DNA from: Acidimicrobiia bacterium
GTDB lineage: Bacteria > Actinomycetota > Acidimicrobiia > Spongiisociales > Spongiisociaceae
Length of the DNA stretch: 64,000 nt
Reading direction: 5' to 3'
Assembly (NCBI GenBank): GCA_041576165.1
Contig: JBFGLM010000003.1
Location: 84,839 to 148,838, forward strand
The notes beneath the pieces were generated by a model. The model worked only from the letters and a program-made list of their open reading frames with translations, was not told the DNA's origin and searched no databases. Position numbers and translations under genes: made by a program. This document shows, piece after piece, positions 2,126 to 28,386 of this stretch (position 1 is its first letter; each line of letters begins with the position of its first letter).

Positions 2126-3499
2126 TCAGTCAGGGCAATAACCAATCAGATCGAGCAGCACCTTCGCGCCGGGCACCAGCAGCGGTCCGCCGATCTCCAG
2201 GGTTGTCGAGGCTGGCTTGTCACCGTCGAAATGAGCCGCCCACTCCTCGATGCTCTGCGCGAACCACTGAAAATCGGCATGAAACGCCTGCCGCCGGCAG
2301 ATCTGGTCGAGGCTGGTCCCGGCCGCCTCACAGATCTTGGCGACGTTGTCCAGCATGTAGCGCATCTGCAGCTTGGGCGGCTGTCCATACCACGGGAAGT
2401 TGGGATGGCGCTCTGTCGACTCTTCCAACGACCCTTTGTGGTTGAACGGCAGGGTGGTCGAGAAGAACAGGAACTTCCCGGCCTTGACCGCCTGCGGTTC
2501 GTGCCCCAACCCTGGGGGCGCCTTGGTTGTTTCGATGGTTTCGATCTCCAGGTCGGAGTCGCCGGCCAGCAACTTGAAGGCGATCTCGATCCGGCTGCCT
2601 TTCCCGCCGAGTCCCATGTAGGGGATCACTACCCGGGCCGGTGGGTTCTCCGGAAACCAGTGACGCCACACCTTGTCCATGCCTTCGAAATCACGCGGGT
2701 GCCCCAGATAGACCGTGGCCTTCACGGCTCGATCGAGCGACGTGCCGGCGGCATCCGCGATCGCCGCCTGTTTCTTGAGCACGTAGTCGGTGTGCGTCTC
2801 GATGTCGGAGTGGTACCAGAACAGCGGGTTGCGGCGTGCCTCCAGGGCGATGCCGCTCGGCTCGCCGTAATACTCGGACCTACCGAAATCGCCTACCCAA
2901 TCGACCGGGATCTCGCCCGCCAGGAAGACCCAGTCGCCGCGGCGGATCGCCGGGCTGTACCCCGCCAACGGTGACGGCGTCCCTTCGGGAACCTCATAGC
3001 CGATGCTCGGGCCGGGATGCACCTCCGGGTCCATCCCGATCATGTCCACCTCGAGGATCGTGTCTTTCACCAGCAGCCCGGTTTCCCGAATGCCCATCCC
3101 GGTTGACGCAGGGCGCGGCTCCTCGATGAACTCGTTGCGGGTCAAGAGGTAGGGCATGATGTCGATGCGGGGCCAGGTGTTGCCCTGATCGAACTCGTCC
3201 ATCGTGGGATACGGAGACGTGAACCACTGGTAGATGCGAACGATATCGGAGCTGATGTCTATACCGGCGGCTTCCGCCGTCCTCTGCAAGTTCTGCAGGA
3301 CGTAGCGGGACTGGATCTCCAGCTGGTTCTCCACATAGCGGTTGCGCCCATCGCCGCCTGCCTCGGGCGCCAGCCCGGTCTCGAAATCAGACGCGAGCTG
3401 GCCGGCAAAGAACACCCAACCTCCCGCCTTGATGGCTGGGCTATACGGCATCAACGGCTTCGGCTCATCTCCCCATACTGCGGTGCGGTCGCTCGCCAC
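2126..3499 (-). CDS. Rid (YjgF/YER057c/UK114) family protein with three tandem Rid domains
   Basis: Three units: PYSPAIKAGGWVFFAGQ, GYSPAIRRGDWVFLAGE and EPQAVKAGKFLFFS, each ending in PA(S/R)...E(V/I)-like segments. GGAGG RBS upstream of the GTG. Confidence 0.85.
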   Translation of the reverse strand: MASDRTAVWGDEPKPLMPYSPAIKAGGWVFFAGQLASDFETGLAPEAGGDGRNRYVENQLEIQSRYVLQNLQRTAEAAGIDISSDIVRIYQWFTSPYPTMDEFDQGNTWPRIDIMPYLLTRNEFIEEPRPASTGMGIRETGLLVKDTILEVDMIGMDPEVHPGPSIGYEVPEGTPSPLAGYSPAIRRGDWVFLAGEIPVDWVGDFGRSEYYGEPSGIALEARRNPLFWYHSDIETHTDYVLKKQAAIADAAGTSLDRAVKATVYLGHPRDFEGMDKVWRHWFPENPPARVVIPYMGLGGKGSRIEIAFKLLAGDSDLEIETIETTKAPPGLGHEPQAVKAGKFLFFSTTLPFNHKGSLEESTERHPNFPWYGQPPKLQMRYMLDNVAKICEAAGTSLDQICRRQAFHADFQWFAQSIEEWAAHFDGDKPASTTLEIGGPLLVPGAKVLLDLIGYCPD

Positions 3500-3527
3500 A
3501 GCACGCCTCCCTTCTGTTGTCGACTGT

Positions 3528-4331
3528 TCAGACCGAAGCCGCGTCGAGCAGCCCTGTCGCCTCGGTGATCTCGGTTATGCCGCGCAGGTCGTCGGGCAGC
3601 TCCATTCCCCTACGGGCGTAGTACTCGGCGAGAAGCGCCGGGGCGTCGACTACCAGGCCGAGGTGGAGCGAGATGACTTGAAGCGCCGCGTTCTCCGCGA
3701 TCTCGGAGTAGCCGGCGACAATGTCGCGCGGCACGATGACCCGGAAGTCCAGGTTGGCCGCGTCGAACGCCGTCGACAGAACGCAGGCGTCGGTGTAGGT
3801 GCCGGTCAGGATGACGTTGTGAACATCGAGGTTCCGTAGCAAGAATTCCAGGTCGGTCGGGTAGAAAGCCGATAGCCGCTTCTTGGTCCGGATGTAGTAG
3901 TCGCCCTCGATCTCCTCGGTCATCAGGTCGAGCCATTTCGTGCCCTCCCACGAGTGCTCGTCCATCAGCTCGTTGTCCTCGATATAGAGGTAATAGAGCA
4001 CCCGCCAGTTGGCCATGCGGTTGTGTTTGCGGTTGTTCAGATCGTCAATACCGCCGTAGCGCTGCCAGTGCTGAACGTGAATCACGGGCATGCCGAGGTT
4101 GCGGCACTCGGCATGGAAGCGATCGTGGGCGGGGATACGGGCGCGGGCGCGTGGTGCCGGAAGCGTCAACCGCTCGTCGGGACCGACATGGCCCCGGTGC
4201 ATGTCGATCTCGACCACCGCAGTCTTGTCGGGGTCGAGCCAGGTTTCGAACGCGTCGTCGTAGTCAGGGACGCCGCTCGGGAGGACCAGCTTGCGCCCGT
4301 CCTCCATGTAGCAGTACAGCTCGGTTTGCAT
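3528..4331 (-). CDS. Isochorismatase-family cysteine hydrolase (RutB/nicotinamidase-like amidase)
   Basis: Asp-Lys-Cys triad pattern: VEIDMH, KKRLSAF, GTYTDACVLSTAFDA. Confidence 0.88.
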   Translation of the reverse strand: MQTELYCYMEDGRKLVLPSGVPDYDDAFETWLDPDKTAVVEIDMHRGHVGPDERLTLPAPRARARIPAHDRFHAECRNLGMPVIHVQHWQRYGGIDDLNNRKHNRMANWRVLYYLYIEDNELMDEHSWEGTKWLDLMTEEIEGDYYIRTKKRLSAFYPTDLEFLLRNLDVHNVILTGTYTDACVLSTAFDAANLDFRVIVPRDIVAGYSEIAENAALQVISLHLGLVVDAPALLAEYYARRGMELPDDLRGITEITEATGLLDAASV

Positions 4332-4346
4332 TCGTGATCTCCGTTC

Positions 4347-5534
4347 TCAGGCGGCGCAGCCGATCGAAGCCGGGTCGATCGCCTCGCCATCGCCCTGCAG
4401 ACCGATGGTCGGGCTGCCGGCCGTCTCGTCAGGGATGGTGATTGACCCGGACCGGACCGCCTCCACGATCGAGTCGTAGGTGGCACGTTCCTCGTCAGAC
4501 AGCAGACCGGCGATGTTCTCGTACAGCGGCGCCGCGATTTCCGGGTTGTTGGTGGCGTCGAACTCGATGAAGTCTTTCGCTCCGATCTCGCCGTTGGCGG
4601 CTCGTTCGATCACTTGCTGGGAAGTGAAGGTGAGCCCGTGGATCGCAGATGTCAACACCACGTCCGGGCCGAGTTCCTGGCTCTCGTAGTAGGACGGTAT
4701 GACCCAGACCTGGCTGTCTGACTGTTCGGCTGCCTCCAGGATGCCGAAGACCGCCGAGTCGGTGGCAGACAAGATCACGTCTGCACCTCCGGCGATTTCG
4801 GACTGGGCCGCCGACTTGGCAATGGCTGTGTCGATCCACGTGTCGATGTATTGCTGGCTGAACTCGATGTCCGGGTTCACGCACCGCGCACCGAGCACGA
4901 ACGCCTCGGGTTGACGGGTCAGTCCGGGGAACTCGAACCCGTTGAGCGAAGCAATGTGGCCGGTGTCGGTCACCAGTGCGGCCAGCACCCCTGCGAAGAA
5001 GTTGGCGTTGTGTTGAGCCGGGTCGACCCAGCACAGATTGTCCGGCTGGTTATCGCCTCCGGTCGCGTCGCCGGGGTGGTGTGGAGCGAGGCACACCTGG
5101 ACGTCCGGGAACTGCTCCGCCAGCGTGATGGCGGGATCCACCATGGCGCCGTGGGCGATGAGGATGAAGTCGAAGCCTTGCCCGGCAAAGGCTGCTCCCT
5201 GCTGCACCACGGCGTCGGGATCGTTGAGCAGATCGACGGACTCGACCACGATGTTCGGGTTGTTGGCCATGGCCTGCTTGGCCCCGTCGAACCAGGCATT
5301 CGACCAGGAGAGGTCGTCCTCGGTGCCCGGGTAGATCAATGCCACCCGGAAAGGCTCGCCGCTCGGTTCGGCTTCGGTCGCCGCCGTCGTTTCCTCCGGC
5401 GCGGTGGTGCCTTCGGGTGCGGCGGTAGTCGCGGTTTCCTCGTCGCCGTCGCCACAAGCCGCCAGCACCATCACCAGGGCCGTGGCAAGGGCAAGTAGGC
5501 GGAGGAACCCGTCGATTGACCGTAGGTCGCCCAT
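4347..5534 (-). CDS. BMP-family ABC transporter substrate-binding lipoprotein (nucleoside/nucleobase type)
   Basis: Lipobox LAAC, Thr/Glu-rich linker, DDLSWSNA and AGVLAALVTDTGHI motifs; adjacent permeases. Confidence 0.88.
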   Translation of the reverse strand: MGDLRSIDGFLRLLALATALVMVLAACGDGDEETATTAAPEGTTAPEETTAATEAEPSGEPFRVALIYPGTEDDLSWSNAWFDGAKQAMANNPNIVVESVDLLNDPDAVVQQGAAFAGQGFDFILIAHGAMVDPAITLAEQFPDVQVCLAPHHPGDATGGDNQPDNLCWVDPAQHNANFFAGVLAALVTDTGHIASLNGFEFPGLTRQPEAFVLGARCVNPDIEFSQQYIDTWIDTAIAKSAAQSEIAGGADVILSATDSAVFGILEAAEQSDSQVWVIPSYYESQELGPDVVLTSAIHGLTFTSQQVIERAANGEIGAKDFIEFDATNNPEIAAPLYENIAGLLSDEERATYDSIVEAVRSGSITIPDETAGSPTIGLQGDGEAIDPASIGCAA

Positions 5535-5615
5535 GATCTCCTCCCAAGTCGATCTGATGTCTTTGAGTCAGACAAAAGGCACTTTACTGAAGATGAATGC
5601 CGCGTGCCCGGGTGG

Positions 5616-6545
5616 TCAGGCAGACTCGCTCTGGGCCCGGTACGGAATGCCGACCGCGGCCGGGTAGGTGGATCCCGGAGCGAACACCACGGCGACGGTG
5701 GTGACCAGGTAGGGCAGCGCCACCCACAGTTGGGTCGGGATCGATGCCAAGGCGTCCAGCTGGTTGGCCAGAAACTGGAGCCCCTGCGTGAGTCCGAAGC
5801 CGAGCGCATAGATGACAACCCACTTCGGTCGCCATTTGGCGAGGACGACCACGCCCAGTGCGATGAACCCGCGGCCGGCGGTCATTCCCGGGATGAATCC
5901 ACCAGAGGTGCTGAGGACGAGGGCGGCCCCGCCGAGAGCGGCGAATACGCACCCGATGACGACGGCTGGATACCGTAGGCGACGGACGTCGAGGCCGCCG
6001 GATTCGGCGGCCAGCGGGCGCTCACCGGCCGAGCGGGCGTAGAGCCCCCACCAGGTGCGGTTGAGGAGCCAGTGCACCCCGACTGCTAGTCCGAGCGCCA
6101 GGTAGAGCATGATGTTCTGGTCGCCGAGGACGTCGCCGATCCAGCGGATGTCCGTGATCAAAGGCAGTTCGATCGATCCCAGCGTCTCGCCGTTCTGGCC
6201 GGCGAGGTACCGCGAGTGGAGGGTGGCCGTGAAACCGAGCGCGAATATGTTGAACATGAGGCCGGTCACGATCTGATCGGTGCCTCGTCGGACGTAGAGG
6301 TAGGCCAGGATGGCACCGCTGAACAACCCCGACCCGGCTCCGGTGACGATGGCCAGGGGCACGTTGCCGATCTGAATCCCGATGAAGGCGGTGAAGAGAG
6401 CTCCGATCAGCATGGCGCCTTCGATCCCGACGTTGAGGACCCCGGCCTTTTCTGCCACGGCCTCGCCCAGCGCAGCCAGCAGAATCGGCACCGCGAGCTG
6501 GATCCCGATGACGAAGAACGCGATCACGAGCGCTTCAGTGAGCAT
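5616..6545 (-). CDS. ABC transporter permease (nucleoside/BPD_transp_2 type)
   Basis: LAALGEAVAEKAGVLNVGIEG and GMTAGRGFIAL motifs; hydrophobic. Confidence 0.92.
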   Translation of the reverse strand: MLTEALVIAFFVIGIQLAVPILLAALGEAVAEKAGVLNVGIEGAMLIGALFTAFIGIQIGNVPLAIVTGAGSGLFSGAILAYLYVRRGTDQIVTGLMFNIFALGFTATLHSRYLAGQNGETLGSIELPLITDIRWIGDVLGDQNIMLYLALGLAVGVHWLLNRTWWGLYARSAGERPLAAESGGLDVRRLRYPAVVIGCVFAALGGAALVLSTSGGFIPGMTAGRGFIALGVVVLAKWRPKWVVIYALGFGLTQGLQFLANQLDALASIPTQLWVALPYLVTTVAVVFAPGSTYPAAVGIPYRAQSESA

Positions 6546-7605
6546 CGGGGTTCTCTGGGTACTGGAACTTTATGAGCCCGCCGACCATCAACAGGATGAC
6601 GAACACTGCGACGATGATCTCGCCGACACTCGGTGATAACCCGGCTCCCGCCTGCAGGCTGTTGCTCCCCACCCGCAGGATGGCGAAGAATCCGGCCGAC
6701 GCGATGATCCACAACGGGTGAAGCCGGGCGACCAAGGCCACGCCGATCCCCACAAAACCGAAATTCGCCGAGAAGTTCTGGAGCAGGGAGTGATCTCGAC
6801 CTTGGACGATCAACGCCCCGGCCAGACCGGCGAATGCACCGGCGATGAGGAACGCTTGCACGGTGACCCGCTCGGTGCGAATACCGGCGAGTCGGGCCGT
6901 CCGCTCATTTGCTCCGATCGCTCGGATCGAAAACCCGAGCCGGGTCCGGCTGATGGCGATGAACGCGATCACGGCCGAGGCGAGCGCGAGAAAGATCCCG
7001 ATGTCAACCAGGGAACCCGACCAGGGTCGAGCGTACTCGGCGTTGACGGCGATGCTCTCTGTTCGCTGGACAAAGCCCTCCGGAAAGACGTCGAAGATCA
7101 CCCACGCGGCCGTGAAGGTTGCCACGAAGTTCAGCATCAGCGTGGTCACGATCTCGCTGGCGTCGAACCGCGCCTTCAGCCAGCCGGGAATCGCGGCCCA
7201 GACGGCACCGGCCGCGATCGCCCCTGCCGTCACGGCTGCGATCAAGAGGACCCGGGGCCAGGTGTCGGGTAGGGCGATGCCCAGGACGGCTGCGGCCATG
7301 GCACCCGCGGTCATCTGGCCCTCGCCGCCGATGTTCCACAGCCGGGCTGAGAACGGGATGGCGGCCGCGAGCGCTACCAGGATCAGAATCCCCGACACCA
7401 CGATCGTCTGACTCAGGTTGAATGTATTGCCGATCGAGCCGCTGATGAGTGTCCGGCCGACGTCGATGGGGCTGGCCCCGAGAATGGCGACCAGCACGGC
7501 CATTACGGCGAGCGTGCCGGCCAGCGCCAGCAGGGATCGCACCCAGCCGGGAAGCGTCCGGCCGGCGCCGGCCCGAACGAGGTTGGCGGGAACCGGCGTA
7601 TCCAT
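6535..7605 (-). CDS. ABC transporter permease (nucleoside/BPD_transp_2 type)
   Basis: LWNIGGEGQ, SEIVTTLMLNF and GFVGIGVAL motifs. Confidence 0.92.
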   Translation of the reverse strand: MDTPVPANLVRAGAGRTLPGWVRSLLALAGTLAVMAVLVAILGASPIDVGRTLISGSIGNTFNLSQTIVVSGILILVALAAAIPFSARLWNIGGEGQMTAGAMAAAVLGIALPDTWPRVLLIAAVTAGAIAAGAVWAAIPGWLKARFDASEIVTTLMLNFVATFTAAWVIFDVFPEGFVQRTESIAVNAEYARPWSGSLVDIGIFLALASAVIAFIAISRTRLGFSIRAIGANERTARLAGIRTERVTVQAFLIAGAFAGLAGALIVQGRDHSLLQNFSANFGFVGIGVALVARLHPLWIIASAGFFAILRVGSNSLQAGAGLSPSVGEIIVAVFVILLMVGGLIKFQYPENPDAH

Positions 7606-8586
7606 CTATGGCAGGAAGGCGCCGACGCCTTGAATCTCAGCAAGGCGCTTGCGATAGGCAATTCCGGATGCGTCCGGCACTTTGAGGTGCAATTCGTCCC
7701 GAAGATCGGTCGGGATCTGCTCTGGACGCTGGCTCTCGACGACCGCCCGGTCCTGTTCCATGATCGTGTGGGTGAAATCGATGAAACCTTGATCGTGGAT
7801 TGGGTCCAGGTCGTAGTTGCGGGCGATCCAGAGGAACATGTGGGTCGTGGTGTCGTTGGTGGGGGAGGACGCCATTGAGATAAGTGTGCGGTCGCCGCTG
7901 GGGATGGTCTTGCGCAGATGGATCGTGAACGGGCCGGTCAGCCAGTACTCCCATTTGACTATGTCATCTTCTCCTGAATGCAGGGTCGACGGCTCGGGCG
8001 CCTCGTACCAGTAATAGAGCATGCGACCCAGATTCTCGACGGTGTGCTCCGCGACCACCGTTCTCTCCCGGGAGCCGAGGATCCCTTCGTGAACGTATGG
8101 GAAGTGGGACAAATCCATGAAGTTCTCCACCGAACGGCCCGCGGACGTATTCCAGACGTAGTGATGAGACACGAACGTCCTGTATCCGGGGTCATCCCAT
8201 TCATCGTTCGGGAAGGGCGGGATGTCTTCGACCGGTTCATCGAGCGCCAACCACACCAAGCCGAAACGCTCGGCCGTCCGGTAGACGATCGCCCTCGCCT
8301 TGGAGGGGATGGGCGAACCGGGTGGGAGCGACGGAATGTGAACGCAGGCACCGGTCTCGTCATACGCCCAGCCGTGATAGCCGCTACGCAGGATGCCGTC
8401 TTCGATGAAACCACGCGACAGGGCAACGCCGCGGTGAATGCACAGGTCCTTGAATACCCGCACCTCCCCTGACGGGGCGCGAAAGGCAACTAGGTCGTCG
8501 CCGAGCAGAGTGAACCGCTGGGGCTGGTCTCCGACGGCGGACGACTCGGCGATCGGGTGCCAGTAGTTCGCCAGGGTTGCTGCCAT
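7606..8586 (-). CDS. Rieske non-heme iron oxygenase alpha subunit (VanA/NdmA-like demethylase type); second Rieske Cys read as Ser
   Basis: CIHRG...LRSGYHGW Rieske box; mononuclear-Fe site ENFMDLSHFPYVH...EQD. ATG 8586 follows a GAGGAGG RBS. Confidence 0.88.
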   Translation of the reverse strand: MAATLANYWHPIAESSAVGDQPQRFTLLGDDLVAFRAPSGEVRVFKDLCIHRGVALSRGFIEDGILRSGYHGWAYDETGACVHIPSLPPGSPIPSKARAIVYRTAERFGLVWLALDEPVEDIPPFPNDEWDDPGYRTFVSHHYVWNTSAGRSVENFMDLSHFPYVHEGILGSRERTVVAEHTVENLGRMLYYWYEAPEPSTLHSGEDDIVKWEYWLTGPFTIHLRKTIPSGDRTLISMASSPTNDTTTHMFLWIARNYDLDPIHDQGFIDFTHTIMEQDRAVVESQRPEQIPTDLRDELHLKVPDASGIAYRKRLAEIQGVGAFLP

Positions 8587-8603
8587 TGGACGACCCTCCT
8601 CGC

Positions 8604-8689
8604 CGGGCGATTGCCCCCGGACGCTACCAGTTATCATTGACCAGAGTGAAGAAGCATGCAGTGTCATTGAAGTCCGCGGGCGATTGCCC
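8604..8689. promoter_or_regulatory. Divergent promoter region with two copies of near-palindromic CGGGCGATTGCCC and two TCATTGA direct repeats
   Basis: 13-mer at 8604-8616 and 8677-8689; TCATTGA at 8634-8640 and 8664-8670. Confidence 0.45.
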
Positions 8690-8719
8690 AGCGGCGTGTC
8701 GGTCCATGGAGCTCGCTCG

Positions 8720-9133
8720 ATGAGCGGAGGACCCGGCTACGAGCCGGTCATTCCGTCCCGGGCGCGGATCCTCCCCGACGACGACACGTGTCCAGAACTC
8801 CCGATCGTGGTCGAAAGCGGTAGAGCATGGGCCGTGGCCTGGCCAGGCTCGGGCGCTCACCTCCGTTCCATGCATCGCATCTCGCTGCCGGCCTCGGCTT
8901 CGACCGTCCCGCTCCGGCACCCGATGGAATCGGTCTACTACGTCATGGCGGGCGCGGCGGTGGCGCATGACCTCGATCTGCAGCAAGAACATCCGCTCAC
9001 TCTCGGTTCGATGATCTTGATCGATCCGGGAACGCGTTACGAACTGGTGGCAGGTGATGAAGGGGCCGAGCTCGTCGGCGGACCTTGTCCACCCGACCCG
9101 GGCATGTACACACATTTGGGAGAGGGTCACTGA
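8720..9133 (+). CDS. Cupin-domain protein
   Basis: LRHPMESVYYVMAG...GSMILIDPGTRY; TGATG coupling to the next gene; start uncertain. Confidence 0.75.
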   Translation: MSGGPGYEPVIPSRARILPDDDTCPELPIVVESGRAWAVAWPGSGAHLRSMHRISLPASASTVPLRHPMESVYYVMAGAAVAHDLDLQQEHPLTLGSMILIDPGTRYELVAGDEGAELVGGPCPPDPGMYTHLGEGH

Positions 9134-9534
9134 TGGCCATACACGTGCTGCACAAGGATGAACCGGATCTCATGATGCCCATGAGTGCGGCGGACGCCCG
9201 CCTCATCGTGTGGGCGGGCCGCGGGTCGCAGACCGCCAACATGAACTACGTGGACATGCAGCCCGGTGAGCGGAACATCCCGCATACCCATAAGGGCTCG
9301 GAGGACACGCTGTATGTGATCGAGGGCCGCGGCACCATGGAGGATCTCAGTAACGGCCTCGAACTTGCATTCGAGGCGCCGTGCGCAGTGCACGTGCCGG
9401 TCGGCCTGTGGCACGCCGTCAAGGCGGACCGGGGCAGCAACATCGAGAGTGTTGGCGGACCTTCGCCGGCCGACTGGAACATGCTGGTGCGGGTCGGCGG
9501 CTACCAACGGCTCACGATCGGGGACTCGCCGTGA
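9133..9534 (+). CDS. Cupin_2 domain protein with intact metal site
   Basis: PHTHKGSEDTLYVIEG and VPVGLWH motifs; ATG overlaps the previous stop. Confidence 0.85.
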   Translation: MAIHVLHKDEPDLMMPMSAADARLIVWAGRGSQTANMNYVDMQPGERNIPHTHKGSEDTLYVIEGRGTMEDLSNGLELAFEAPCAVHVPVGLWHAVKADRGSNIESVGGPSPADWNMLVRVGGYQRLTIGDSP

Positions 9535-10385
9535 GACATGAGATCACCATCGGACTCGCTCAGATCAGCGCTGAGCCTTACGAAGTCGAGGCAAACCGCA
9601 AGCTATGCGCGGACACCATCAGGGACGCCTTCGGACAAGGGGCCGACCTCGTGGTCCTGCCCGAGCTGATCATTCCCGGCTATGTAGCCGACGCCGCCCG
9701 GCTGTTTCCCATCGCCGAGCCGGTCGGTGGTGAAACGGTCCGCGAATGGACCGACCTGGCAGCCGAGGCCGGCGGCTACGTTGTCGGGGGCCTGGCCGAA
9801 CGCGCCGGCGAGTCTCTGTACAACACCGCAGTTGCGGTCGGCCCGCAAGGACTGATCGGGCATTACCGCAAAACCCACCTGTTCGCCGATGAGAAGGTGG
9901 CCTTCGCACCCGGCGATATGGGGTTCCCGGTGGTGCGGACCCGATTTGGGACCATCGGAATCTGCGTCTGCTACGACCTGAGGTTCGTGGAAGTCGTGCG
10001 GTTGATGGCTCTGCAGGGAGCCGACCTGATTTGTGTCCCGACCGCCTGGCTCCCCGGCTATGACCAGCAGCGGTGGGACGCCGACGGCATGTCGCCCCAG
10101 GGTCGAGGCGCTGAACTCCAAGCCAATCTCAACCAGGTATTCATAGCCTGCGCCTCCCAGGCCGGCATCCACGGGCAATGCGACTTCCTTGGTTCGTCGA
10201 TCCTCATCGACCCGTTCGGAAAGCGGCTGGTGGGCCCGCTGTCCGGCTCGGACGACGAAGTGGTGCTGGCCACGGTGGACATTGCCGATGCCAAGCGCTC
10301 CCAGGTACGGGGGGAGATGATCTCTCCGAGAGCGGACCGCCGCACGGACATCTACCAGATCGCAGTCGACGAGCAGCTGCTCTAA
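9531..10385 (+). CDS. Carbon-nitrogen hydrolase (nitrilase superfamily amidase/carbamoylase)
   Basis: Glu-Lys-Cys triad: LPEL, YRKTHL, CVCYDLRF. GTGA overlap with the upstream stop. Confidence 0.92.
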   Translation: MRHEITIGLAQISAEPYEVEANRKLCADTIRDAFGQGADLVVLPELIIPGYVADAARLFPIAEPVGGETVREWTDLAAEAGGYVVGGLAERAGESLYNTAVAVGPQGLIGHYRKTHLFADEKVAFAPGDMGFPVVRTRFGTIGICVCYDLRFVEVVRLMALQGADLICVPTAWLPGYDQQRWDADGMSPQGRGAELQANLNQVFIACASQAGIHGQCDFLGSSILIDPFGKRLVGPLSGSDDEVVLATVDIADAKRSQVRGEMISPRADRRTDIYQIAVDEQLL

Positions 10386-10480
10386 TTCGTACGTCCACTC
10401 TGCCGTAGGCGAGGTGTCGCCGCGCTCGCTGGGCCGACCACCTAGCTTTGGCGGAGAGGTGGGACAGGAGGAGGCCGAGC

Positions 10481-11086
10481 ATGACCACCCCGGAGCAGCC
10501 CTTCTACCGGCGACGAGGATTCGTCATCGGCGCGATCGTCGTAGCGATTCCCGTGATCGCGGTCGGCTGGTACCTGTTGTCGCCCCTTTTCATCAACCGC
10601 ACGGTCGAAGAAGAGTTTCCACGGGCGGCAATGGCGGCCGTACCGGCCGACATGACGGCAGAACAGGTGGAACAGGAGATGATCGACGCCGAGGGGGACA
10701 ATGTCGAGTCCACCGAGGATATGCCCGAGGCCGATCCCGTAGCGATCGTGACCGGAACCATCATGGGAGCCGACTCGTTCCACCGTGGCTCCGGCACGGC
10801 CACCATCTACGAACTGGCTGATGGCTCGCGCATCCTCCGGCTCGAGGATCTCGATGTGACCAACGGCCCGGATCTGCACGTCTTGCTCTCGCCGGTTGCA
10901 GCTCCCGAGAGCCGAGAGCAGGTAACGGCTGAGGGTTATGTCGACCTGGGAGGTTTGAAGGGCAATCGCGGGTCACAGAACTACGACATACCGGTGGATT
11001 TCGAGATCGGCGGAGAGCTAAGCGTGGTCATCTACTGCCAGCCTTTCCACGTCATATTCTCGACCGCGACGCTCGACCCTGCCTGA
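10481..11086 (+). CDS. DM13 domain membrane-anchored protein
   Basis: N-terminal TM helix; HRGSGTA, NGPDLHV, LKGNRGSQNY and VIYC..F.VIF motifs. Confidence 0.88.
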   Translation: MTTPEQPFYRRRGFVIGAIVVAIPVIAVGWYLLSPLFINRTVEEEFPRAAMAAVPADMTAEQVEQEMIDAEGDNVESTEDMPEADPVAIVTGTIMGADSFHRGSGTATIYELADGSRILRLEDLDVTNGPDLHVLLSPVAAPESREQVTAEGYVDLGGLKGNRGSQNYDIPVDFEIGGELSVVIYCQPFHVIFSTATLDPA

Positions 11087-11119: not shown

Positions 11120-11296
11120 ATGCCGCGCCGATTGCGCTTCGCCGTCGTGGTCTTCGTCGTGACCCTGATCGTCAACGTCGCGGTGCAAGCTGTGTGGCCG
11201 GACGGCGAAGTCGACTGGAGTGCGGCGATCGTGATCAGCCTCGTCACCGCCCTCGCCATATCGGTCATCGAGCAGCGACCTCGCCGCCGTGATTGA
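11120..11296 (+). CDS. Small 58-aa two-TM membrane protein
   Basis: MPRRLRFAVVVFVVTLIVNVAVQAVWPDGEVDWSAAIVISLVTALAISVIEQRPRRRD*. TAGGGT lies 7 nt before the ATG. Absent from the ORF track, which lists nothing under 60 aa. Confidence 0.65.
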   Translation: MPRRLRFAVVVFVVTLIVNVAVQAVWPDGEVDWSAAIVISLVTALAISVIEQRPRRRD

Positions 11297-11406
11297 AACC
11301 AGCCTCGATAACGGCGAGCTCGACCGCCGTGATGGCGCGGTCCACTGGTAGCGCATCGAGCGCGGCACTCCTAGAGTCTCACTCAATCGAGTTTTGGGAG
11401 GACTCA

Positions 11407-12243
11407 ATGCAGATGGTTGACCTGTCGCACACCATGAACATCCACACTCCGGGATGGGTCGGCTATGCGGGCAACAAGATGTATTACGCCCAGACCCTGC
11501 AGACCAACCGCATCGTCGCCCAGCGGATCGAAAGCTCCCTCCATGCTGGCACCCACCTGGACGGGCCGATGCATTCGGTCGATGGTGGAGGTGACATGGC
11601 CTCTCTTGCGTTGGAATTCCTGATCAACAAGGGCGCCATTGTCGACATCAGCGACCAGGTTGACGACTGGGACATCATCACTCCCCAGATGCTCGAAGAC
11701 GCCCCGGTCGAAATCGAGCAGGGCGACATCCTCATCATCCATACGGGCTATCACAAGTACTGGGAGGGCGAAGAGCAGCAGGACCTGGTGCGCTACTTCA
11801 CGATGCACCCGGGCGGGACTCGCGAGCTGGCCGACTGGATGATCGAACGAGAGATCAAGTGGTTCGGGATCGACGCAGGTTCGGGCGACCACCCGATGAA
11901 CACAACCATCCGGAACATGCGTCCCGATCTCCGGGAACAGTTCGAGGAACAGGTCGGCATGACGTGCGAGGAGTTCTTCCCACCGTACGAATACACCCAT
12001 CACCTGAGCGGACGCGTTGTGAAGAATGACATGTTCCCGTTCCACAACTATGCGATGCAGTTCGGACTGATTCACTCCGAAAACGTGGGCGGCGATATCG
12101 ACAAGGTTCTCAATCGCCGAGCCCTGATCGGGGCATTCCCTTGGAAGTACGAAGGTCTCGAGTCGTGCCCGTGCCGCGTGATCGCGTTCCTGGACACGGA
12201 TACGAACGTGGAGGAGTTCACCGGCGAGGCGATGGGCCACTGA
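11407..12243 (+). CDS. Cyclase family metal-dependent amidohydrolase (kynurenine formamidase/isatin hydrolase-like)
   Basis: HAGTHLDGPMH signature; GGAGG RBS. Confidence 0.9.
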   Translation: MQMVDLSHTMNIHTPGWVGYAGNKMYYAQTLQTNRIVAQRIESSLHAGTHLDGPMHSVDGGGDMASLALEFLINKGAIVDISDQVDDWDIITPQMLEDAPVEIEQGDILIIHTGYHKYWEGEEQQDLVRYFTMHPGGTRELADWMIEREIKWFGIDAGSGDHPMNTTIRNMRPDLREQFEEQVGMTCEEFFPPYEYTHHLSGRVVKNDMFPFHNYAMQFGLIHSENVGGDIDKVLNRRALIGAFPWKYEGLESCPCRVIAFLDTDTNVEEFTGEAMGH

Positions 12244-12290
12244 ACCCGAGATTCAACGCCGGCGATCGGCGCGAACACCGCCGCGGCATC

Positions 12291-13124
12291 ATGCTGGCGC
12301 TCGCAGGCATAGCTTCGCTCAGTCCGGAATCGCTCCTCATCCGGCTCGTGGAGGCCGACCGATGGACAATCGTCTTCTGGAGAGGTCTGTTGATGGCGGT
12401 GGGCCTCGGTGCGGCGTCGTCCGTGCTCGCCGGGTCTTCGCGGGTCATCCGTGAGATCGGGCCATGGGGGCTGGTGGTCGGCGCCTTGTTCGGTATCCAG
12501 ACGACCTTGTTCGTCGCGTCGATCACGAACACCACCGTGGCGAACACGCTCGTGGTGATGAGCGCGGCACCACTGTTCGCCGCGGTGTGGGCTCGCGTCT
12601 TCTATTCGCAGCCGGTTGGAACTCGGATGTGGGTGGTCATTGCCATTGCGATGGCTGGCGTCGCCTTCATGTTCTCCGGGAATGTGGGCGGCGGCGCCCT
12701 AGCCGGCGATCTCGCCGCGGTGGGTGCAGCTGCCGCCTTCGGGGGTGTGTTTGTACTCATCAGGCGGCACAAGACCGTCAACATGGTCCCTGCCATGGGC
12801 GTTGGTGGCCTGGTCGGAGCCATTCTCGTGTCACCGCTGGCCGCCCCGGCTTCGATCTCGGTCGCCGATTTTGGCTATCTGGCGACAAGTGGATTCGTGG
12901 TGTTGCCGCTGGGGTTCGGTCTGCTGGCAGTTGCCCCCCGCTATCTACCAGCGGCCGAGGTGGGACTGATAACGCTGCTCGAGACGATTCTGGGTCCGCT
13001 ATGGGTGTGGCTCGCGATCGGCGAGGAGCCAGGGATCAGAACGCTCGTGGGTGGTGCAGTCGTTGTCGGCACCCTGGCAGTGAACACCGCGTTGCTGCTC
13101 GCAGTCGCTCCGCAACCCGACTAG
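12291..13124 (+). CDS. DMT/EamA family transporter
   Basis: About 10 hydrophobic segments; TTVANTL and LLETILGPLWVW motifs; start uncertain. Confidence 0.88.
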   Translation: MLALAGIASLSPESLLIRLVEADRWTIVFWRGLLMAVGLGAASSVLAGSSRVIREIGPWGLVVGALFGIQTTLFVASITNTTVANTLVVMSAAPLFAAVWARVFYSQPVGTRMWVVIAIAMAGVAFMFSGNVGGGALAGDLAAVGAAAAFGGVFVLIRRHKTVNMVPAMGVGGLVGAILVSPLAAPASISVADFGYLATSGFVVLPLGFGLLAVAPRYLPAAEVGLITLLETILGPLWVWLAIGEEPGIRTLVGGAVVVGTLAVNTALLLAVAPQPD

Positions 13125-13213
13125 GCGAATTGATGCTCGACAGGACCGACGCAGGCGGATGGTGCGAGCGAATGCGGTCGTTGCGGGCGCAGCGGTGCCG
13201 GCCGCGAGTGGGT

Positions 13214-14134
13214 TCATCGGAGCCGTGCGGCGAGCGCATCGACCTCGGTACGGGTTGGAAGATAGAGGCCTTCGTGGCTGACGGAGATCGCGCCGGCGGC
13301 ATTGGCGAACGTAACGGCCTCTCCCCAGCCGGCCCCGGAAATGCGCGATGTGACCAGGCCGGCCATGAAGACATCTCCGCCCCCGGTCTCGTCGATCACA
13401 TCGACTCGTGACGTGGGAACGGTCGTGAATCCCTCTGGCCCGGCGATGACGGTACCGCCCGCCCCCAGCTTCACGCAAAGCCGCTGGGCGCCGGCGTCGA
13501 GCAGATCCCGGGCGGCCAATCTCGCCTCGATTTCGCCGGCGACGACGCGCCCGGTCAGCCCGGCGACCTCGGCGAGGTTCGGGGTCAGGACCTCGGCCGC
13601 CGCCAGCGTCGCCACCGACACGGATTCGGGCGGCGTTGGATCTAGGTACAGCGGAACACGCGCAGCCTGCGACCAGGCGGCAAGCTGCTCGAGCGCTGCA
13701 CCGGGAATCTCGGCCTGCGCAACGAGCGCATCACACCGCTCGAGGGCCGGCAACGCCGGCTGCAGGTGCGCCCACTCGAGCCGGTGATTGGCGCCGGGGA
13801 CGAACACCCGGGTCACGTGGTGGCCCGCAACGAGGTCGATAACAACGAATCCGGTGCGATCGCCTTCGATCTCGACAACATGGTTGGCATCGACGCCATC
13901 TTTGGTGATCGCGGCAAGGCATTCCCTGCCGTACTCGTCGGAACCCACGGCGGCGACCAAGGTGACCTCTGCCCCCAACCGGGCGGCCGCTCGGGCTTGG
14001 TTGGCTCCTTTGCCGCCCGGCTCTGCGATGTAGTACTCGGCCATGAGCGGTCCGTGGGGCGCGGGGGCGGATTTGAACAGGTGTATGTCCATGTTGACTC
14101 CGCCGACGACACCGATTCGCGGCTTCATAGGCAT
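13214..14134 (-). CDS. Ribokinase-like PfkB carbohydrate kinase
   Basis: PGGKGANQARAAARLG, TPNLAE and DETGGGDVF motifs. Confidence 0.9.
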   Translation of the reverse strand: MPMKPRIGVVGGVNMDIHLFKSAPAPHGPLMAEYYIAEPGGKGANQARAAARLGAEVTLVAAVGSDEYGRECLAAITKDGVDANHVVEIEGDRTGFVVIDLVAGHHVTRVFVPGANHRLEWAHLQPALPALERCDALVAQAEIPGAALEQLAAWSQAARVPLYLDPTPPESVSVATLAAAEVLTPNLAEVAGLTGRVVAGEIEARLAARDLLDAGAQRLCVKLGAGGTVIAGPEGFTTVPTSRVDVIDETGGGDVFMAGLVTSRISGAGWGEAVTFANAAGAISVSHEGLYLPTRTEVDALAARLR

Positions 14135-14496
14135 TCCCGGTCAACGTTGCGTCCGGGCGGGGCTGGTTGCGCCTGCATTGTGGACCCTCCATGGCTCGAC
14201 AACCGATTGTTCCATCCTCTTGGGCGACATGTACCCTGAGCCCGCGCCCTTCTGGGACTCGGGCCTATCGGCGACTGCAATGAAACGCCCGTTCGAGCAG
14301 CCCCCCAAGCGGCAACACCCGCACCGCGGGCCCATCGCTCGAGATTCGTGACCGCCGTCGGGCCAAGAGCGAGGGTCGAAATACTCTGGTCTCATGGCGT
14401 GGCTCGCCGGAGACTGCGATCAGGGCCTGTCCGCAAGCCGGGGAACGGCATGGAGGCGGCTTGTGCTTGGGCCCATCGACACCAGCGGAGTAGGGA

Positions 14497-15333
14497 GTGA
14501 TTGCGGTGAACCAACCCCTCGAAGTGCCCCAGACGCGAGGTTTGAGCTCCGAAGCGAGCATCGACGTTGCGTTCGTCACTCGCGGGCCGATCCCAGTATC
14601 GGCGCGGCGACACGCCGAGCGCATTCTCGCCTCGCTCGGAGCCAAGGCACCGCGCCCGATCATCTATGCCCGGTTCAAGCTCCGGGTCGAGCCCAGCCGA
14701 CCCCCGGACGAACAAGCGCTCGTACAGGCGACGATCGACGTGAGCGGGAGCCGAATCCGGGCACACGTGGCCAGCCGAAACGTCGAGGAGGCCCTCGATC
14801 TACTGGACGAGCGATTGCGCCGGAGGCTCCGACGCCTCACTGAGCGCCGCCAGGACAACGCCACCCGTCCGTTCCAGACACCGCCGGGAGTGTGGCGTCA
14901 CGGCGACCTGCCGACGAGGCGTCCCGCATACTTTCATCGCGATCCCCAGGACCGCGAGATCATACGCCGCAAGGCATACGCGCCCCGAGCAGTTTCGCTG
15001 GAAGAGGCTCTGTTCGACCTCGACGTGCTCGACCACCGGTTCTTCCTGTTCACAGACCAGGACAGCGGGGAAGACTCGATCGTCTACGAGACCGACGACA
15101 CGGTGGTGGTCCAGCACGTGTCGGGCGGCGTGCCCGAACCGGACCGGGTGCACGCATTGTCGGTTGCGGTGAATACGGCCCAGGCCCCGTCGATGTCGGA
15201 GGCCGACGCCATTGAGCGGCTCGATACTTCCGATGAACCGTTTCTATTCTTCCGCGACCGGGGGACGGACCGGGGAAAGGTCCTTTACCGCAGGTACGAC
15301 GGCCACTATGGGCTGATCGAACCGGCAGACTGA
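14497..15333 (+). CDS. Ribosome hibernation factor, RafH/Rv0079-like (HPF N-domain plus two S30AE C-terminal domains)
   Basis: Duplicated EEALFDLDVLDHRFFLF and DAIERLDTSDEPFLFF segments; C-terminal YRRYDGHYGLI. Confidence 0.82.
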   Translation: MIAVNQPLEVPQTRGLSSEASIDVAFVTRGPIPVSARRHAERILASLGAKAPRPIIYARFKLRVEPSRPPDEQALVQATIDVSGSRIRAHVASRNVEEALDLLDERLRRRLRRLTERRQDNATRPFQTPPGVWRHGDLPTRRPAYFHRDPQDREIIRRKAYAPRAVSLEEALFDLDVLDHRFFLFTDQDSGEDSIVYETDDTVVVQHVSGGVPEPDRVHALSVAVNTAQAPSMSEADAIERLDTSDEPFLFFRDRGTDRGKVLYRRYDGHYGLIEPAD

Positions 15334-15373
15334 TCCCCCCGGGGGGCGGACGCCCGATATCCGGCTCCAGGTC

Positions 15374-16675
15374 TCAGGCTGAATGGTCCCGGTGGGCGAT
15401 CAGGTCGATTTCGATCAGTAGCTCCGGCATCATGATGCCGCCGTCGCCCGACGCCTGATTGGAAGGAATCAGGTTGAGGGTGGGCCAATGACCCACCGGT
15501 TCCCATACCTGCCGCCAGGCACGTTCGAAGCCGCGGTAGTCGCGCTGAGCCCAACACAGAAACACCCGCGCGTCAACGACATTGCGTAGGTCGAGATCGT
15601 TGGCCTCCAGTTGGTGCTTGAGGAGATCCATCGTTCCGCGGACCTGGATCTCGATATCCGACCAATAGTGCGGCAAACCCTTCGGCGCTTGGGTGAACCC
15701 GAAGTTCTCGTAGTCAGGGCACGACACTTGACCGGCCATGAAGAACCACCGCCCGACCTCGATACCCGGAGTGAAATGGACCTTGCGGATGTCTTCGGGA
15801 TGCCACGCGATGCCCTTGCGGGATTCGACCTTTTGATGCTGGTCGTCAGGTGCAATGAACTGTGCGTTCGCAATGAAGATCGCGCCGGGCACCAGCAGGT
15901 CCGGCATCGCCATCGAGGCACGAGTGGGCGGCGACGTTCCGGCCTGGTGGCCCATGTATTGGTCCCAGACTCCGTCGAGATCATGGAAGTTGGCGAGGTC
16001 GATCTCGAAGGCATGGGTCTTCACGCACTGGGTGAGGTCACTCCCGGCAGCCTCCAGCACCTTCCCCCAATTGTCGAACATGTATCGAGCCTGGAGCTCG
16101 GTGTCGGACGCGTAGTAGGGCGCCACCGGGTTGGTAGTGACCGGGATGCCCGTCTCGAAATCGGTCGCTGGGTAACCGGACATGAAGACGAACGGTGCTG
16201 CCTTGACGGCCTGTGGACACCACTCGGCGTCCATCGGGTCGGGCACCGCGTCAATGTTGATCACCGCCCGCCTGTCAGCCGCGTCCCGGTGCAGCGCCAC
16301 GGCGACGAGGCTCAAACGAACGCCGGGAATGATGTGATCGTCACCGCAGACCGCAGTCAGCCGGGCAGGAGGCGCGTCGGGGAAGGCCTCTTTCCACGCC
16401 AGCTTGAACTCGTAGAAGTCTGATGCATCTACGAGATACACCTCAGCCTTGAGCGTGAGCGCGAGTGAGCTACCGGCCTCTTCGAGGATTTCCGCCAGGG
16501 CCACACAGACGGCCTTCGTTTGCGCCGCCACCTCCGACTGGCCGATGTGTGGTGAGATCGAGTCGCTATGCACGACGGCACCGTCGGCGTCGATCGGGTA
16601 GAGCGTGGACACGTAGACGAGATCGTCCTGACGGGACCAGCGGGGTGCGGGTAGTACGTTCATGGGCAGCGGCAC
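15374..16675 (-). CDS. Second triple-domain Rid family protein
   Basis: Three Rid-like units (FPDAPPAR; PQAVKAAPFVFMSG...PPTR; TPGIEVGRWFFMAGQ...LIEIDLIA). GTG 16675 lies 6 nt after GGGAGG. Confidence 0.83.
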   Translation of the reverse strand: MPLPMNVLPAPRWSRQDDLVYVSTLYPIDADGAVVHSDSISPHIGQSEVAAQTKAVCVALAEILEEAGSSLALTLKAEVYLVDASDFYEFKLAWKEAFPDAPPARLTAVCGDDHIIPGVRLSLVAVALHRDAADRRAVINIDAVPDPMDAEWCPQAVKAAPFVFMSGYPATDFETGIPVTTNPVAPYYASDTELQARYMFDNWGKVLEAAGSDLTQCVKTHAFEIDLANFHDLDGVWDQYMGHQAGTSPPTRASMAMPDLLVPGAIFIANAQFIAPDDQHQKVESRKGIAWHPEDIRKVHFTPGIEVGRWFFMAGQVSCPDYENFGFTQAPKGLPHYWSDIEIQVRGTMDLLKHQLEANDLDLRNVVDARVFLCWAQRDYRGFERAWRQVWEPVGHWPTLNLIPSNQASGDGGIMMPELLIEIDLIAHRDHSA

Positions 16676-28378: not shown

Positions 28379-28386
28379 ACCCGCAG

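Follow-up and report, generated by a model that had tools for sequence, protein, structure and literature searches.

The stretch of DNA considered here, referred to below as the window, comprises 64,000 nucleotides of contig JBFGLM010000003.1 (GenBank assembly GCA_041576165.1, positions 84,839 to 148,838 of the forward strand) from a bacterium of the class Acidimicrobiia, and it carries two reverse-strand genes that each encode three Rid domains fused in tandem, i.e., protein 1 (P0001, 2126..3499) and protein 2 (P0002, 15374..16675, or to 16699). Few small enzymes are as widespread as the Rid proteins, most of whose subfamilies have no assigned function. The reading tentatively favoured here is that both proteins are single-chain Rid pseudo-trimers with unequal, diverged pockets, which represent two widespread families and act as dedicated C–N enzymes of N-heterocycle catabolism rather than as generic scavengers; the substrate and the reaction that we infer for each follow below. 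The two open reading frames (ORFs) and their units, some of which retain the Arg equivalent to Arg105 of RidA, are as follows.

2126..3499, reverse strand: protein 1 ORF, 457 residues, GTG start
3020..3499, reverse strand: protein 1 unit 1, residues 1-160, with an insertion in the second helix region
2555..3019, reverse strand: protein 1 unit 2, residues 161-315, the most conserved unit and the only protein 1 unit with the Arg
2126..2554, reverse strand: protein 1 unit 3, residues 316-457 plus the stop codon
15374..16675, reverse strand: protein 2 ORF, 433 residues from a GTG start at 16675, or 441 residues (to 16699) from a TTG start
16268..16675, reverse strand: protein 2 unit 1, residues 1-136, with the Arg present and a degenerate Tyr/Glu face
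15830..16267, reverse strand: protein 2 unit 2, residues 137-282, with Arg252
15374..15829, reverse strand: protein 2 unit 3, residues 283-433 plus the stop codon, the sole protein 2 unit with an aromatic/Glu face

The relatives of protein 2 are mostly 433-439 residues long and cover 96-98% of the 441-residue reading; because of these lengths the GTG at 16675 is the likelier start, and the residue numbers of protein 2 refer to the 433-residue form. The unit boundaries, which were placed by eye and agree roughly with the envelopes of a unit hidden Markov model (HMM), give units of 160, 155 and 142 residues in protein 1 and of 136, 146 and 151 residues in protein 2. Pfam family PF01042 matches three stretches of protein 1 (E 7.4e-38, 129.7 bits) and three stretches of protein 2 (E 8.8e-31, 106.9 bits) against a gathering threshold of 27.3, i.e., far beyond chance, which bears out the three tandem Rid units per protein that an earlier note had read from the DNA. 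At E ≤ 0.1, PF01042 is the only Pfam match of protein 1, and protein 2 adds a weak LST1 match under its cut-off. Among the NCBIfam models, TIGR00004 (cut-off 106.25) gives 126.2 for protein 1, summed over the three units, and 83.4 for protein 2; the RutC model TIGR03610 (cut-off 169.1) is not reached by either protein (78.4 and 54.8 bits, respectively), and the enamine/imine deaminase equivalog model stays far under its cut-off for both. A sequence search of the PDB yielded nothing but single-domain Rid chains, none longer than 165 residues, and by sequence neither protein matches a characterised family over its full length. No further Rid gene was found in the window, either by Pfam on the 42 ORFs at 20-64 kb or by tblastn with three triple-Rid proteins.

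The predicted structures point in the same direction. AlphaFold2 models reach a mean predicted local distance difference test score of 93.8 and a predicted template-modelling (TM) score of 0.93 for protein 1, and 93.4 and 0.92, respectively, for protein 2, and DSSP assigns to each model the Rid beta-alpha-beta-alpha-beta-beta pattern three times. Using Foldseek against the PDB, single solved Rid chains cover one unit each at TM scores of 0.80-0.91, and the only whole-chain matches of either model are three-domain chorismatases (best 5a3k, 5ag3 and 4bps), aligned in sequential order over 388-418 columns with E 1.6e-11 to 3.9e-10 and 10-14% identity; the TM scores are 0.45-0.48 when normalised to the query and 0.55-0.61 when the target is the reference. 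Chorismatases are known as single-chain, three-domain relatives of the Rid trimer. Since the whole chains superpose on them, the earlier proposal that both proteins are covalent pseudo-trimers is well supported by the models, and no solved structure in the PDB lies close to either full chain by Foldseek.

This structural match also raises the question of whether the two proteins are chorismatase-like lyases of the FkbO/Hyg5/XanB2 type, with chorismate or a comparable carboxylated ring as substrate. Besides the fold, the dependence of Hyg5 on Glu334 near its C-terminus (PMC7170507) would agree with E422 in the last unit of protein 2, if Hyg5 Glu334 corresponds to the Glu120 column of the last unit, as we take it to do. 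However, the identity is only 10-14%, the TM score normalised to the query stays below 0.5, the Glu120 column of the last unit is occupied by L448 in protein 1, PF01042 still recognises all three units, and Pfam detects no shikimate or natural-product genes nearby in the window. A lyase of this type is thus highly improbable.

A passage of PMC12218379 gives seven residues as invariant in RidA, i.e., Tyr17, Gly31, Asn57, Asn89, Arg105, Pro114 and Glu120, and describes each pocket of the Rid trimer as shared by two chains, one of which contributes Arg and Asn89 and the adjoining one Tyr17, Gly31, Asn57, Pro and Glu. The corresponding columns were read off from the unit HMM, which was built from the aligned pooled units of both families, with the Tyr17, Gly31, Asn57 and Arg columns anchored on alignments to 2dyy (PH0854) and the Glu column on 2csl; six of the seven columns were scored, Pro114 not being reliably aligned. 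The residues at the Tyr17, Gly31, Asn57, Asn89, Arg105 and Glu120 columns are, in this order:

Protein 1 unit 1: Y19, G33, N70, D101, S132, E150
Protein 1 unit 2: Y181, G195, K243, D275, R289, E305
Protein 1 unit 3: E334, T348, N385, I417, S431, L448
Protein 2 unit 1: A10, T24, A59, K91, R105, S122
Protein 2 unit 2: C153, G167, N202, D234, R252, I268
Protein 2 unit 3: F301, G315, L351, E384, L400, E422

None of the six units carries the complete RidA set. The motifs picked out in the earlier note around the Arg (PAS/PAR/PAS in protein 1, PAR/PTR/PTL in protein 2) and the terminal Glu (EVD/EIA/LLD in protein 1, EID only in unit 3 of protein 2) fall exactly in the corresponding HMM columns. In 44 relatives of protein 1 that are 61-86% identical to it, S132, R289, S431, E150 and E305 are invariant, as are E334, K243 and many flanking residues, together with W92, S95, P98, T99, W109, Y117, P130, A131, S132 and T133 of unit 1. 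Across 49 relatives of protein 2 (44-88% identical), R252 never varies, and R105 and E422 are each kept to at least 90%. The asymmetry of Arg and Glu is a family-wide property and no quirk of the source genome.

Both families are large. At E ≤ 1e-5, the scoring of 8000 candidates gave 893 cluster representatives for the protein 1 family, and the protein 2 family has 197; the 120 relatives of protein 1 listed are all 441-489 residues long and 61-100% identical to it. A full search of 1.84 billion representatives with protein 1 gave 2286 matches at E ≤ 1e-3, of which 126 reach E ≤ 1e-30; many of the proteins found are 410-470 residues long and align collinearly with protein 1 at identities as low as about 27%. 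No clear stand-alone single-domain close relative occurs among the 120 shorter matches listed, which are read as fragments, being for the most part short pieces of high partial identity, many of them from contigs of a few kb. Protein 1 found no match at 1e-20 by tblastn among 72,556 plasmids, and the ESM Atlas gave only clusters named RidA or L-PSP. As far as the literature was searched, neither of these two large asymmetric families has been described.

Among the collected proteins of 380-520 residues, 322 of 329 gave three unit hits (five gave two and two gave four). The Arg105 column of the 322 triple proteins reads Ser-Arg-Ser in 132, hereafter class I, to which protein 1 belongs, and Arg-Arg-Met/Leu/Ile/Val in 107, hereafter class II, to which protein 2 belongs; the other 83 show other combinations. 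Fully symmetric proteins, with Arg, Tyr and Glu in all three units, number two of the 322 (P0278 and P0299); P0328 and P0349 have Arg in every unit, but their Tyr and Glu columns are degenerate. P0278 (420 residues) is listed on a contig of 148,838 bases, as long as the one that carries the exact copy of protein 1, and by tblastn it lies outside the window; the source genome may therefore carry one symmetric and two asymmetric triple-Rid genes. Class II is rich in paralogues: five distinct cluster representatives lie on one contig of 3,408,909 bases, and a Dehalococcoidia record holds three class II genes with the consecutive tags GEU28_10505, GEU28_10510 and GEU28_10515 and several more elsewhere. 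One Acidimicrobiia locus (L010) has two ORFs of the triple-Rid cluster on opposite strands within 11.8 kb.

The distant relatives of protein 1 were assessed on 80 in-register representatives, i.e., the 90 three-unit representatives, P0001 included, of a library at 50% identity, minus 10 with Arg in unit 1. At the Arg105 column, Ser occupies unit 1 in 62 of them and Arg occupies unit 2 in 56 (Thr in 14, Leu in 7), and unit 3 is variable (Ser in 27). The Glu120 column holds Glu in 74 of the 80 in unit 2, 33 in unit 1 and none in unit 3; the Tyr17 column holds Tyr or Phe in 55 in unit 2 and Glu in 41 in unit 3, and the Asn57 column of unit 2 holds Lys or Arg in 44. Columns conserved to at least 70% number 26 in unit 2, 23 in unit 3 and 14 in unit 1, and together these patterns mark unit 2 as the conserved hub of the protein 1 superfamily at the sequence level.

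Annotation in the source records names all relatives either "enamine deaminase RidA" or "Rid family hydrolase", which is what would be expected if both proteins were ordinary fused RidA scavengers of 2-aminoacrylate or imines, in which the decay of some pockets is tolerated because one pocket is enough. The summed TIGR00004 score of protein 1 above its cut-off (126.2 vs. 106.25), the one near-canonical pocket that protein 2 appears to retain (see below) and the existence of symmetric triples fit such a role as well. However, S132, S431, E334 and K243 are not drifting but invariant in the 44 close relatives, and Ser at unit 1 persists in 62 of the 80 distant ones; under the pairing of faces deduced below, protein 1 has no pocket that combines Arg, Tyr and Glu; its operon is catabolic and conserved; and several class II paralogues on one contig or with neighbouring tags would be unusual for a housekeeping protein. 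A scavenging role is thus judged improbable, and under the preferred reading of dedicated enzymes the labels "RidA" and "Rid family hydrolase" probably mis-state the chemistry of the triple-Rid proteins.

Since each pocket of the Rid trimer is made by two chains, one giving the Arg and the other the Tyr and Glu, intact pockets cannot be counted by counting Arg residues, and the question of which faces meet was approached through residue couplings. Average-product-corrected mutual information was computed from 202 in-register sequences (effective number 107), between 14 columns of the Arg face (A) and 28 columns of the Tyr/Glu face (B). Couplings of A of unit k with B of unit k+1 have a mean of 0.0132, with 7.0% of the pairs above 0.1 and top-five means of 0.236, 0.238 and 0.178 at the three interfaces, whereas those of A of unit k with B of unit k-1 have a mean of -0.0105, with 1.4% of the pairs above 0.1 and top-five means of 0.099, 0.133 and 0.151. 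The excess has the same direction at all three interfaces, and the observed difference was reached by none of 2000 random pairs of column sets; a few top couplings point the opposite way, from k to k-1. These statistics indicate that in class I each unit turns its Arg face towards the Tyr/Glu face of the next one (k to k+1).

On this pairing, the pocket between units 1 and 2 of protein 1 would be formed by S132-T133 with Y181, G195, K243 and E305, all of which are conserved across the superfamily, and would be flanked by the unit 1 insertion with W92, S95, P98, T99, W109 and Y117. The pocket between units 2 and 3 would combine R289 with E334, T348, N385 and L448, and that between units 3 and 1 would combine S431 with Y19, G33, N70 and E150; the latter is the least conserved in distant relatives and appears relaxed. 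Protein 1 would thus have no Arg+Tyr+Glu pocket, since the unit facing its single Arg carries Glu at the Tyr17 position and Leu at that of Glu120, whereas the opposite (k-1) pairing would give it one. Protein 2 should have exactly one near-canonical pocket whichever pairing applies, because only unit 3 has an aromatic/Gly/Glu face and both of its possible partners carry Arg. This pocket would bring an Arg together with F301, G315 and E422, all from unit 3, and the other two would be one with an Arg and a hydrophobic opposite face and one that is dead. The earlier note had counted sites from the Arg residues, one in protein 1 and two in protein 2, and here it needs correcting: the residues of a pocket come from two units, and protein 2 has two Arg residues for one near-canonical pocket.

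One co-occurrence was rejected as proof of contact. Of the 56 distant representatives with Arg at unit 2, 39 have Glu at the Tyr17 position of unit 3, compared with 2 of the 24 that lack this Arg (Fisher p 3e-7); on the tree, however, the Arg state changed only three times, and an independent-pairs test is not significant.

The two proteins are 27-29% identical to each other, and their best BLAST alignment is one unit out of register. Summed profile-profile scores amount to 204.7 in register, to 390.3 when units 2, 3 and 1 of protein 1 are set against units 1, 2 and 3 of protein 2, and to 350.4 for the other shift; the mean identities are 0.66 in register and 0.77 and 0.77 for the two shifts. 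In-register orthology of the units is thus disfavoured. A unit tree of 117 rows is largely unresolved, with 53 of its 114 branches open, and the order of the units may reflect either a cyclic permutation or an independent concatenation of units, which neither the scores nor the tree tells apart.

Protein 1 lies within a tight run of genes on one strand, which reads in the direction of transcription as the Rieske oxygenase, the permeases, the Bmp protein, the isochorismatase-family hydrolase, the triple-Rid protein and the molybdenum hydroxylase, with further genes diverging upstream. The transporter genes belong to the ATP-binding cassette (ABC) type.

7606..8667, reverse strand: Rieske/VanA-like oxygenase (Pfam), the first gene of the same-strand run
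6535-7605 and 5616-6545, reverse strand: two ABC permeases (Pfam)
4347-5534, reverse strand: Bmp/PnrA-type ABC substrate-binding protein (Pfam), with a 15-nt gap to the next gene
3528..4331, reverse strand: isochorismatase-family cysteine hydrolase (PF00857), 28 nt upstream of protein 1
2..2101, reverse strand: molybdenum hydroxylase large subunit of the xanthine dehydrogenase/CO dehydrogenase family (Pfam MoCoBD_1/2, Ald_Xan_dh_C)
8684-9133, forward strand: cupin (Pfam), divergent
9381-10385, forward strand: carbon-nitrogen hydrolase (Pfam), divergent
10448-11086, forward strand: DM13 "electron transfer" domain protein, between the carbon-nitrogen hydrolase and cyclase genes

The molybdenum hydroxylase gene follows protein 1 after 24 nt and runs off the window, and a gene for a cyclase-family protein is also among the divergent upstream genes. 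Beside protein 1, the ABC transporter has no ATPase gene within the window. In relatives, a double ATPase of 513 residues, which scores highest in NCBIfam against "putative B6 ABC transporter ATP-binding protein" (447.6 bits vs. a cut-off of 670), lies one or two genes past the triple-Rid gene, after the molybdenum hydroxylase gene or an M24 gene; in the source genome the ATPase gene probably lies just beyond the window start.

The conservation of this neighbourhood was surveyed in one scan of species-representative genomes, which gave 80 loci, and homologues of the window neighbours were sought by tblastn; since many loci are cut by contig ends, the counts are lower bounds. The homologues of protein 1 are 83-86% identical to it in the closest loci, from Acidimicrobiia, 62-69% in Thermoleophilia and 56-67% in Alpha- and Gammaproteobacteria and one Verrucomicrobiales record. 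A homologue of the isochorismatase-like protein (median identity 71%) is present in 53 of the 80 loci, the Bmp protein in 52, the permeases in 49 and 49, the molybdenum hydroxylase large subunit in 40, the cupin in 39, the carbon-nitrogen hydrolase in 38, the Rieske oxygenase in 20 and the cyclase in 11; DM13, PfkB, HPF, the phosphoenolpyruvate (PEP)-utilising enzyme and the HMGL-like gene were found by tblastn in none of the 80. In 31 of the 80 loci the molybdenum hydroxylase gene and the triple-Rid gene are no more than 100 nt apart; the isochorismatase-like gene is equally close to the triple-Rid gene in 14 loci and within 3 kb of it in 32. Relatives have two or three molybdenum hydroxylase genes per locus. 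An M24 creatinase/prolidase-like gene is found beside the triple-Rid gene or one gene from it in 24 of 48 Acidimicrobiia-type loci (L004-L008, L011, L012, L016, L021-L035).

The neighbours of protein 1 share a theme. The Bmp-type protein has its best PDB sequence match in 6pi5, an "atrazine periplasmic binding protein" (E 4.8e-19). The isochorismatase-like protein matches biuret hydrolase 6xjm, RutB 8bkd and a "putative amidase", 6azo, at full length, and N-carbamoylsarcosine amidohydrolase 1nba over about 170 residues; the best matches of the carbon-nitrogen hydrolase are 6ypa, 1j31 and 3ivz, of the archaeal nitrilase/beta-ureidopropionase type. These matches suggest that the locus serves the uptake, hydroxylation and stepwise C–N hydrolysis of an N-heterocycle via ureido or amide intermediates. 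Searches of the literature yielded nothing relevant to the operon.

A first alternative raised by the close linkage is that protein 1 is a non-catalytic binding or accessory subunit of the molybdenum hydroxylase or of the transporter, which binds the heterocycle and does not turn it over. Its gene directly adjoins that of the large subunit in the 31 loci mentioned above, the canonical catalytic constellation would be lost, and solved Rid proteins have been deposited with ligands, e.g., 3k0t with glucose. However, proteobacterial homologues that are 57-64% identical occur in loci of which none of 23 contains the molybdenum hydroxylase, and the polar residues of the pockets show very strong conservation, of a kind more often seen in catalytic sites; such a passive role seems quite improbable.

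A second alternative, and the chief competitor of the preferred reading, is that protein 1 is a ring-opening cyclic amidase analogous to AtzD/barbiturase, in which the Ser-Thr of unit 1 would act with Lys243, Tyr181 and Glu305; a lactam made by the adjacent molybdenum hydroxylase would be opened, and the BiuH/RutB-like hydrolase would take the ureido product. Biuret hydrolase acts downstream of AtzD, and full-length matches to both biuret hydrolase and RutB are given by a hydrolase encoded nearby; the best match of the binding protein is the atrazine-binding protein, and the molybdenum hydroxylase large subunit lies within 100 nt in 31 of the 80 loci. The replacement of Arg by Ser in unit 1 (62 of 80) and Lys or Arg at the Asn57 column of unit 2 (44 of 80) would suit this chemistry. 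A passage of PMC3758960 proposes that AtzD arose by concatenation of YjgF monomers and states that it uses Ser-Lys dyads. However, according to the same passage, the site of AtzD lies in a central barrel with three Ser-Lys dyads, Mg and four-strand repeats, and not in outer pockets between units; PF01042 is the sole Pfam match of protein 1 at E ≤ 0.1, no AtzD chain occurs among the Foldseek matches listed for either model, the operon already has four other candidate C–N hydrolases, and the spatial pairing of Ser and Lys is putative. This cyclic amidase is considered unlikely, though it deserves to be kept in mind, and the link to AtzD drawn in the earlier note stays an analogy. A bolder version extends to the whole of class I, which would be unrecognised ring-opening or ureido-cleaving hydrolases acting directly after a molybdenum hydroxylase in a widespread actinobacterial pathway for pyrimidine-, purine- or triazine-like rings, with a Ser/Thr-Lys-Tyr-Glu pocket that arose between units 1 and 2 after fusion had let the pockets diverge. 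This version is speculative and rather unlikely; if true, class I would be a living intermediate between the Rid homotrimers and the Toblerone-fold amidases, a step only postulated by Peat et al. 2013.

The preferred reading places protein 1 as a dedicated enzyme in a degradation of N-heterocycles that depends on the molybdenum hydroxylase. In the proposed pathway, a ring compound would be imported by the Bmp-type ABC transporter and hydroxylated adjacent to a nitrogen, the ring would be opened and de-amidated by the BiuH/RutB-like, carbon-nitrogen and cyclase-like ureido/amide hydrolases, and the triple-Rid protein would act on the resulting enamine, imine or carbamoylated intermediate. Protein 1 would thereby parallel RutC after RutB, in a remodelled pocket instead of the canonical Arg pocket. 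Protein 2, whose gene closes a second catabolic operon rich in hydrolases, is most likely an enamine/imine deaminase-type enzyme with a single active site, and its near-canonical pocket would make it a better candidate for a true deaminase than protein 1. The suggestion of the earlier note that these are dedicated pathway enzymes is favoured for protein 1 by an operon that its proposed survey of homologue neighbourhoods, carried out here for the protein 1 family, found conserved in Actinobacteria, and the substrate and the reaction are inferred.

Several observations weigh against this reading. The 80 loci were divided by hand, via their record titles, into 57 of actinobacterial type and 23 of proteobacterial or verrucomicrobial type, and the isochorismatase-like gene is found in 51 of the 57 vs. 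1 of the 23, the Bmp gene in 52 vs. 0 and the molybdenum hydroxylase gene in 40 vs. 0; the operon is an actinobacterial feature. If the triple-Rid protein does the same job everywhere, its step is therefore not tied to the molybdenum hydroxylase. Scores of the neighbours lie far under the NCBIfam equivalog cut-offs (BiuH 59.5 vs. 370, RutB 37.1 vs. 378), so that no neighbour name can be transferred, and the RutC scores of the Rid proteins themselves are 78.4 and 54.8 vs. 169. The composition of the pockets derives from coupling statistics, with no geometry measured on the models, and the Arg–Glu co-occurrence mentioned above gives no proof of contact. In class II the coupling is weak (0.0040 vs. 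-0.0012), and at an effective number of 48 the alignment is too shallow to decide the pairing. Finally, the context of protein 2, the last gene of a same-strand run of HMGL-like, M24 and PEP-utilising-type genes, is that of this window only.

As partners, the 23 proteobacterial and verrucomicrobial loci have short-chain dehydrogenases/reductases (SDRs) in 13, a CocE/NonD hydrolase in 9 and a TRZ/ATZ-like amidohydrolase in 7, along with other binding proteins or carriers of the major facilitator superfamily. Ponticaulis profundi and Beijerinckia sp. L45, two cultured organisms with a homologue of protein 1, do not have the operon of the actinobacterial loci.

The genes that precede protein 2 were identified by Pfam and NCBIfam.

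16793-18460, reverse strand: PEP-utilising-type enzyme, upstream of protein 2
18533-19771, reverse strand: M24 creatinase/prolidase-like hydrolase, two genes upstream of protein 2
19856-21082, reverse strand: HMGL-like protein, upstream of protein 2

Another M24 gene of the window lies at 31432-32988, and the recurrent pairing of an M24 hydrolase with a triple-Rid protein may be meaningful. Convergent with protein 2 is a gene for a ribosome hibernation factor (S30AE plus C-terminal domain, 14497-15333, forward strand), whose ORF of 278 residues matches its family only from residue 37, and its true start is probably further downstream. A second catabolic stretch, at 26413-43836, encodes a GntR/FCD regulator, an Amidohydro_2 protein, a DctP binding protein of the tripartite ATP-independent periplasmic (TRAP) type, an SDR, a 3-hydroxyisobutyrate-dehydrogenase-like protein, Ldh_2, a flavin mononucleotide (FMN)-dependent dehydrogenase, a second cyclase-family protein, a mandelate-racemase-like enolase and an FAA-hydrolase protein. 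The ORF at 28987-31431 (forward strand, 814 residues) has a PhyH dioxygenase domain at residues 491-738 and no Pfam match in its first ~490 residues, and may be over-extended in GC-rich DNA. Further along, a forward-strand ORF of 1469 residues (44379-48788) with two glycosyltransferase family 2 domains is followed by a glycosyltransferase family 2 gene (48819-49652) and a sulfotransferase-family gene (49649-50503), and 44379-50503 looks like a cell-envelope or polysaccharide cluster.

The fused architecture has been named before. Niehaus et al. 2015 (BMC Genomics, PMC4433059), in the passage concerned, introduce "3x-RidA" with EF_0115 (Enterococcus faecalis V583) as their example, assume it to form "covalently linked trimer units" and count it as RidA with no further characterisation. 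Full-text searches returned no literature on the fused architecture beyond this paper, whose supplementary files may list members. Proteins 1 and 2 share with 3x-RidA the three Rid domains fused in tandem in one polypeptide, but not a threefold equivalence, the Arg column being Ser/Arg/Ser in protein 1 and Arg/Arg/Leu in protein 2; Arg in every domain, as in a copy of the homotrimer, is found in neither. The symmetric triples P0278 and P0299 are probably what the 2015 name describes. As far as the literature searched shows, the architecture is thus already named and unstudied, and the asymmetric classes and the operon are undescribed. With the homotrimeric RidA/YjgF/TdcF proteins, the two proteins share the Rid fold of each unit and, as predicted, pockets between neighbouring units, but they are single chains, with units of 136-160 residues and longer loops.

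In the Rut system, RutB, an isochorismatase-family hydrolase, releases the enamine that is the substrate of the Rid protein RutC, which deaminates it. RutC is described in a passage of PMC8113886 as the 3-aminoacrylate deaminase of the rut operon for the use of uracil. The locus of protein 1 resembles this pair in that an isochorismatase-family ureido-amide hydrolase is encoded beside a Rid protein in a nucleobase-type catabolic cluster; it differs in the model scores (RutB 37.1 vs. 378, RutC 78.4 vs. 169) and in having molybdenum hydroxylases instead of a RutA-type monooxygenase. With the FkbO/Hyg5 chorismatases (4bps, 5a3k, 5ag3) the models share a whole-chain superposition that no other solved single-chain fold gives, but at 10-14% identity and with chorismatase chains shorter by about 100 residues, and the context of these enzymes, as far as the sources consulted describe it, is the biosynthesis of natural products or xanthomonadin, not catabolism.

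The "Toblerone" fold of AtzD/barbiturase, as set out in the passage of PMC3758960 cited above, is one chain of three YjgF-like repeats, proposed to have arisen by concatenation. Here the likeness lies in the neighbours of protein 1, which resemble the pathway partners of AtzD (biuret-hydrolase-like and atrazine-binding-protein-like), and the difference in the repeats: AtzD has four-strand repeats, a site in the barrel, three Ser-Lys dyads and Mg, whereas protein 1 and protein 2 each keep three recognisable PF01042 units. Fusion of three subunits frees the pockets from having to be identical, and the divergence that may follow is displayed by the triple-Rid families, with one unit as the conserved hub, one pocket apparently rebuilt with Ser for Arg and one apparently abandoned. 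Protein 1 also marks a conserved, undescribed operon, apparently for N-heterocycles, in soil and sponge-associated Acidimicrobiia and other Actinomycetota. Together, the two families provide a testable case of the passage from a homo-oligomer to an asymmetric single-chain enzyme, the route that has been proposed, and not observed, for cyanuric acid hydrolase.

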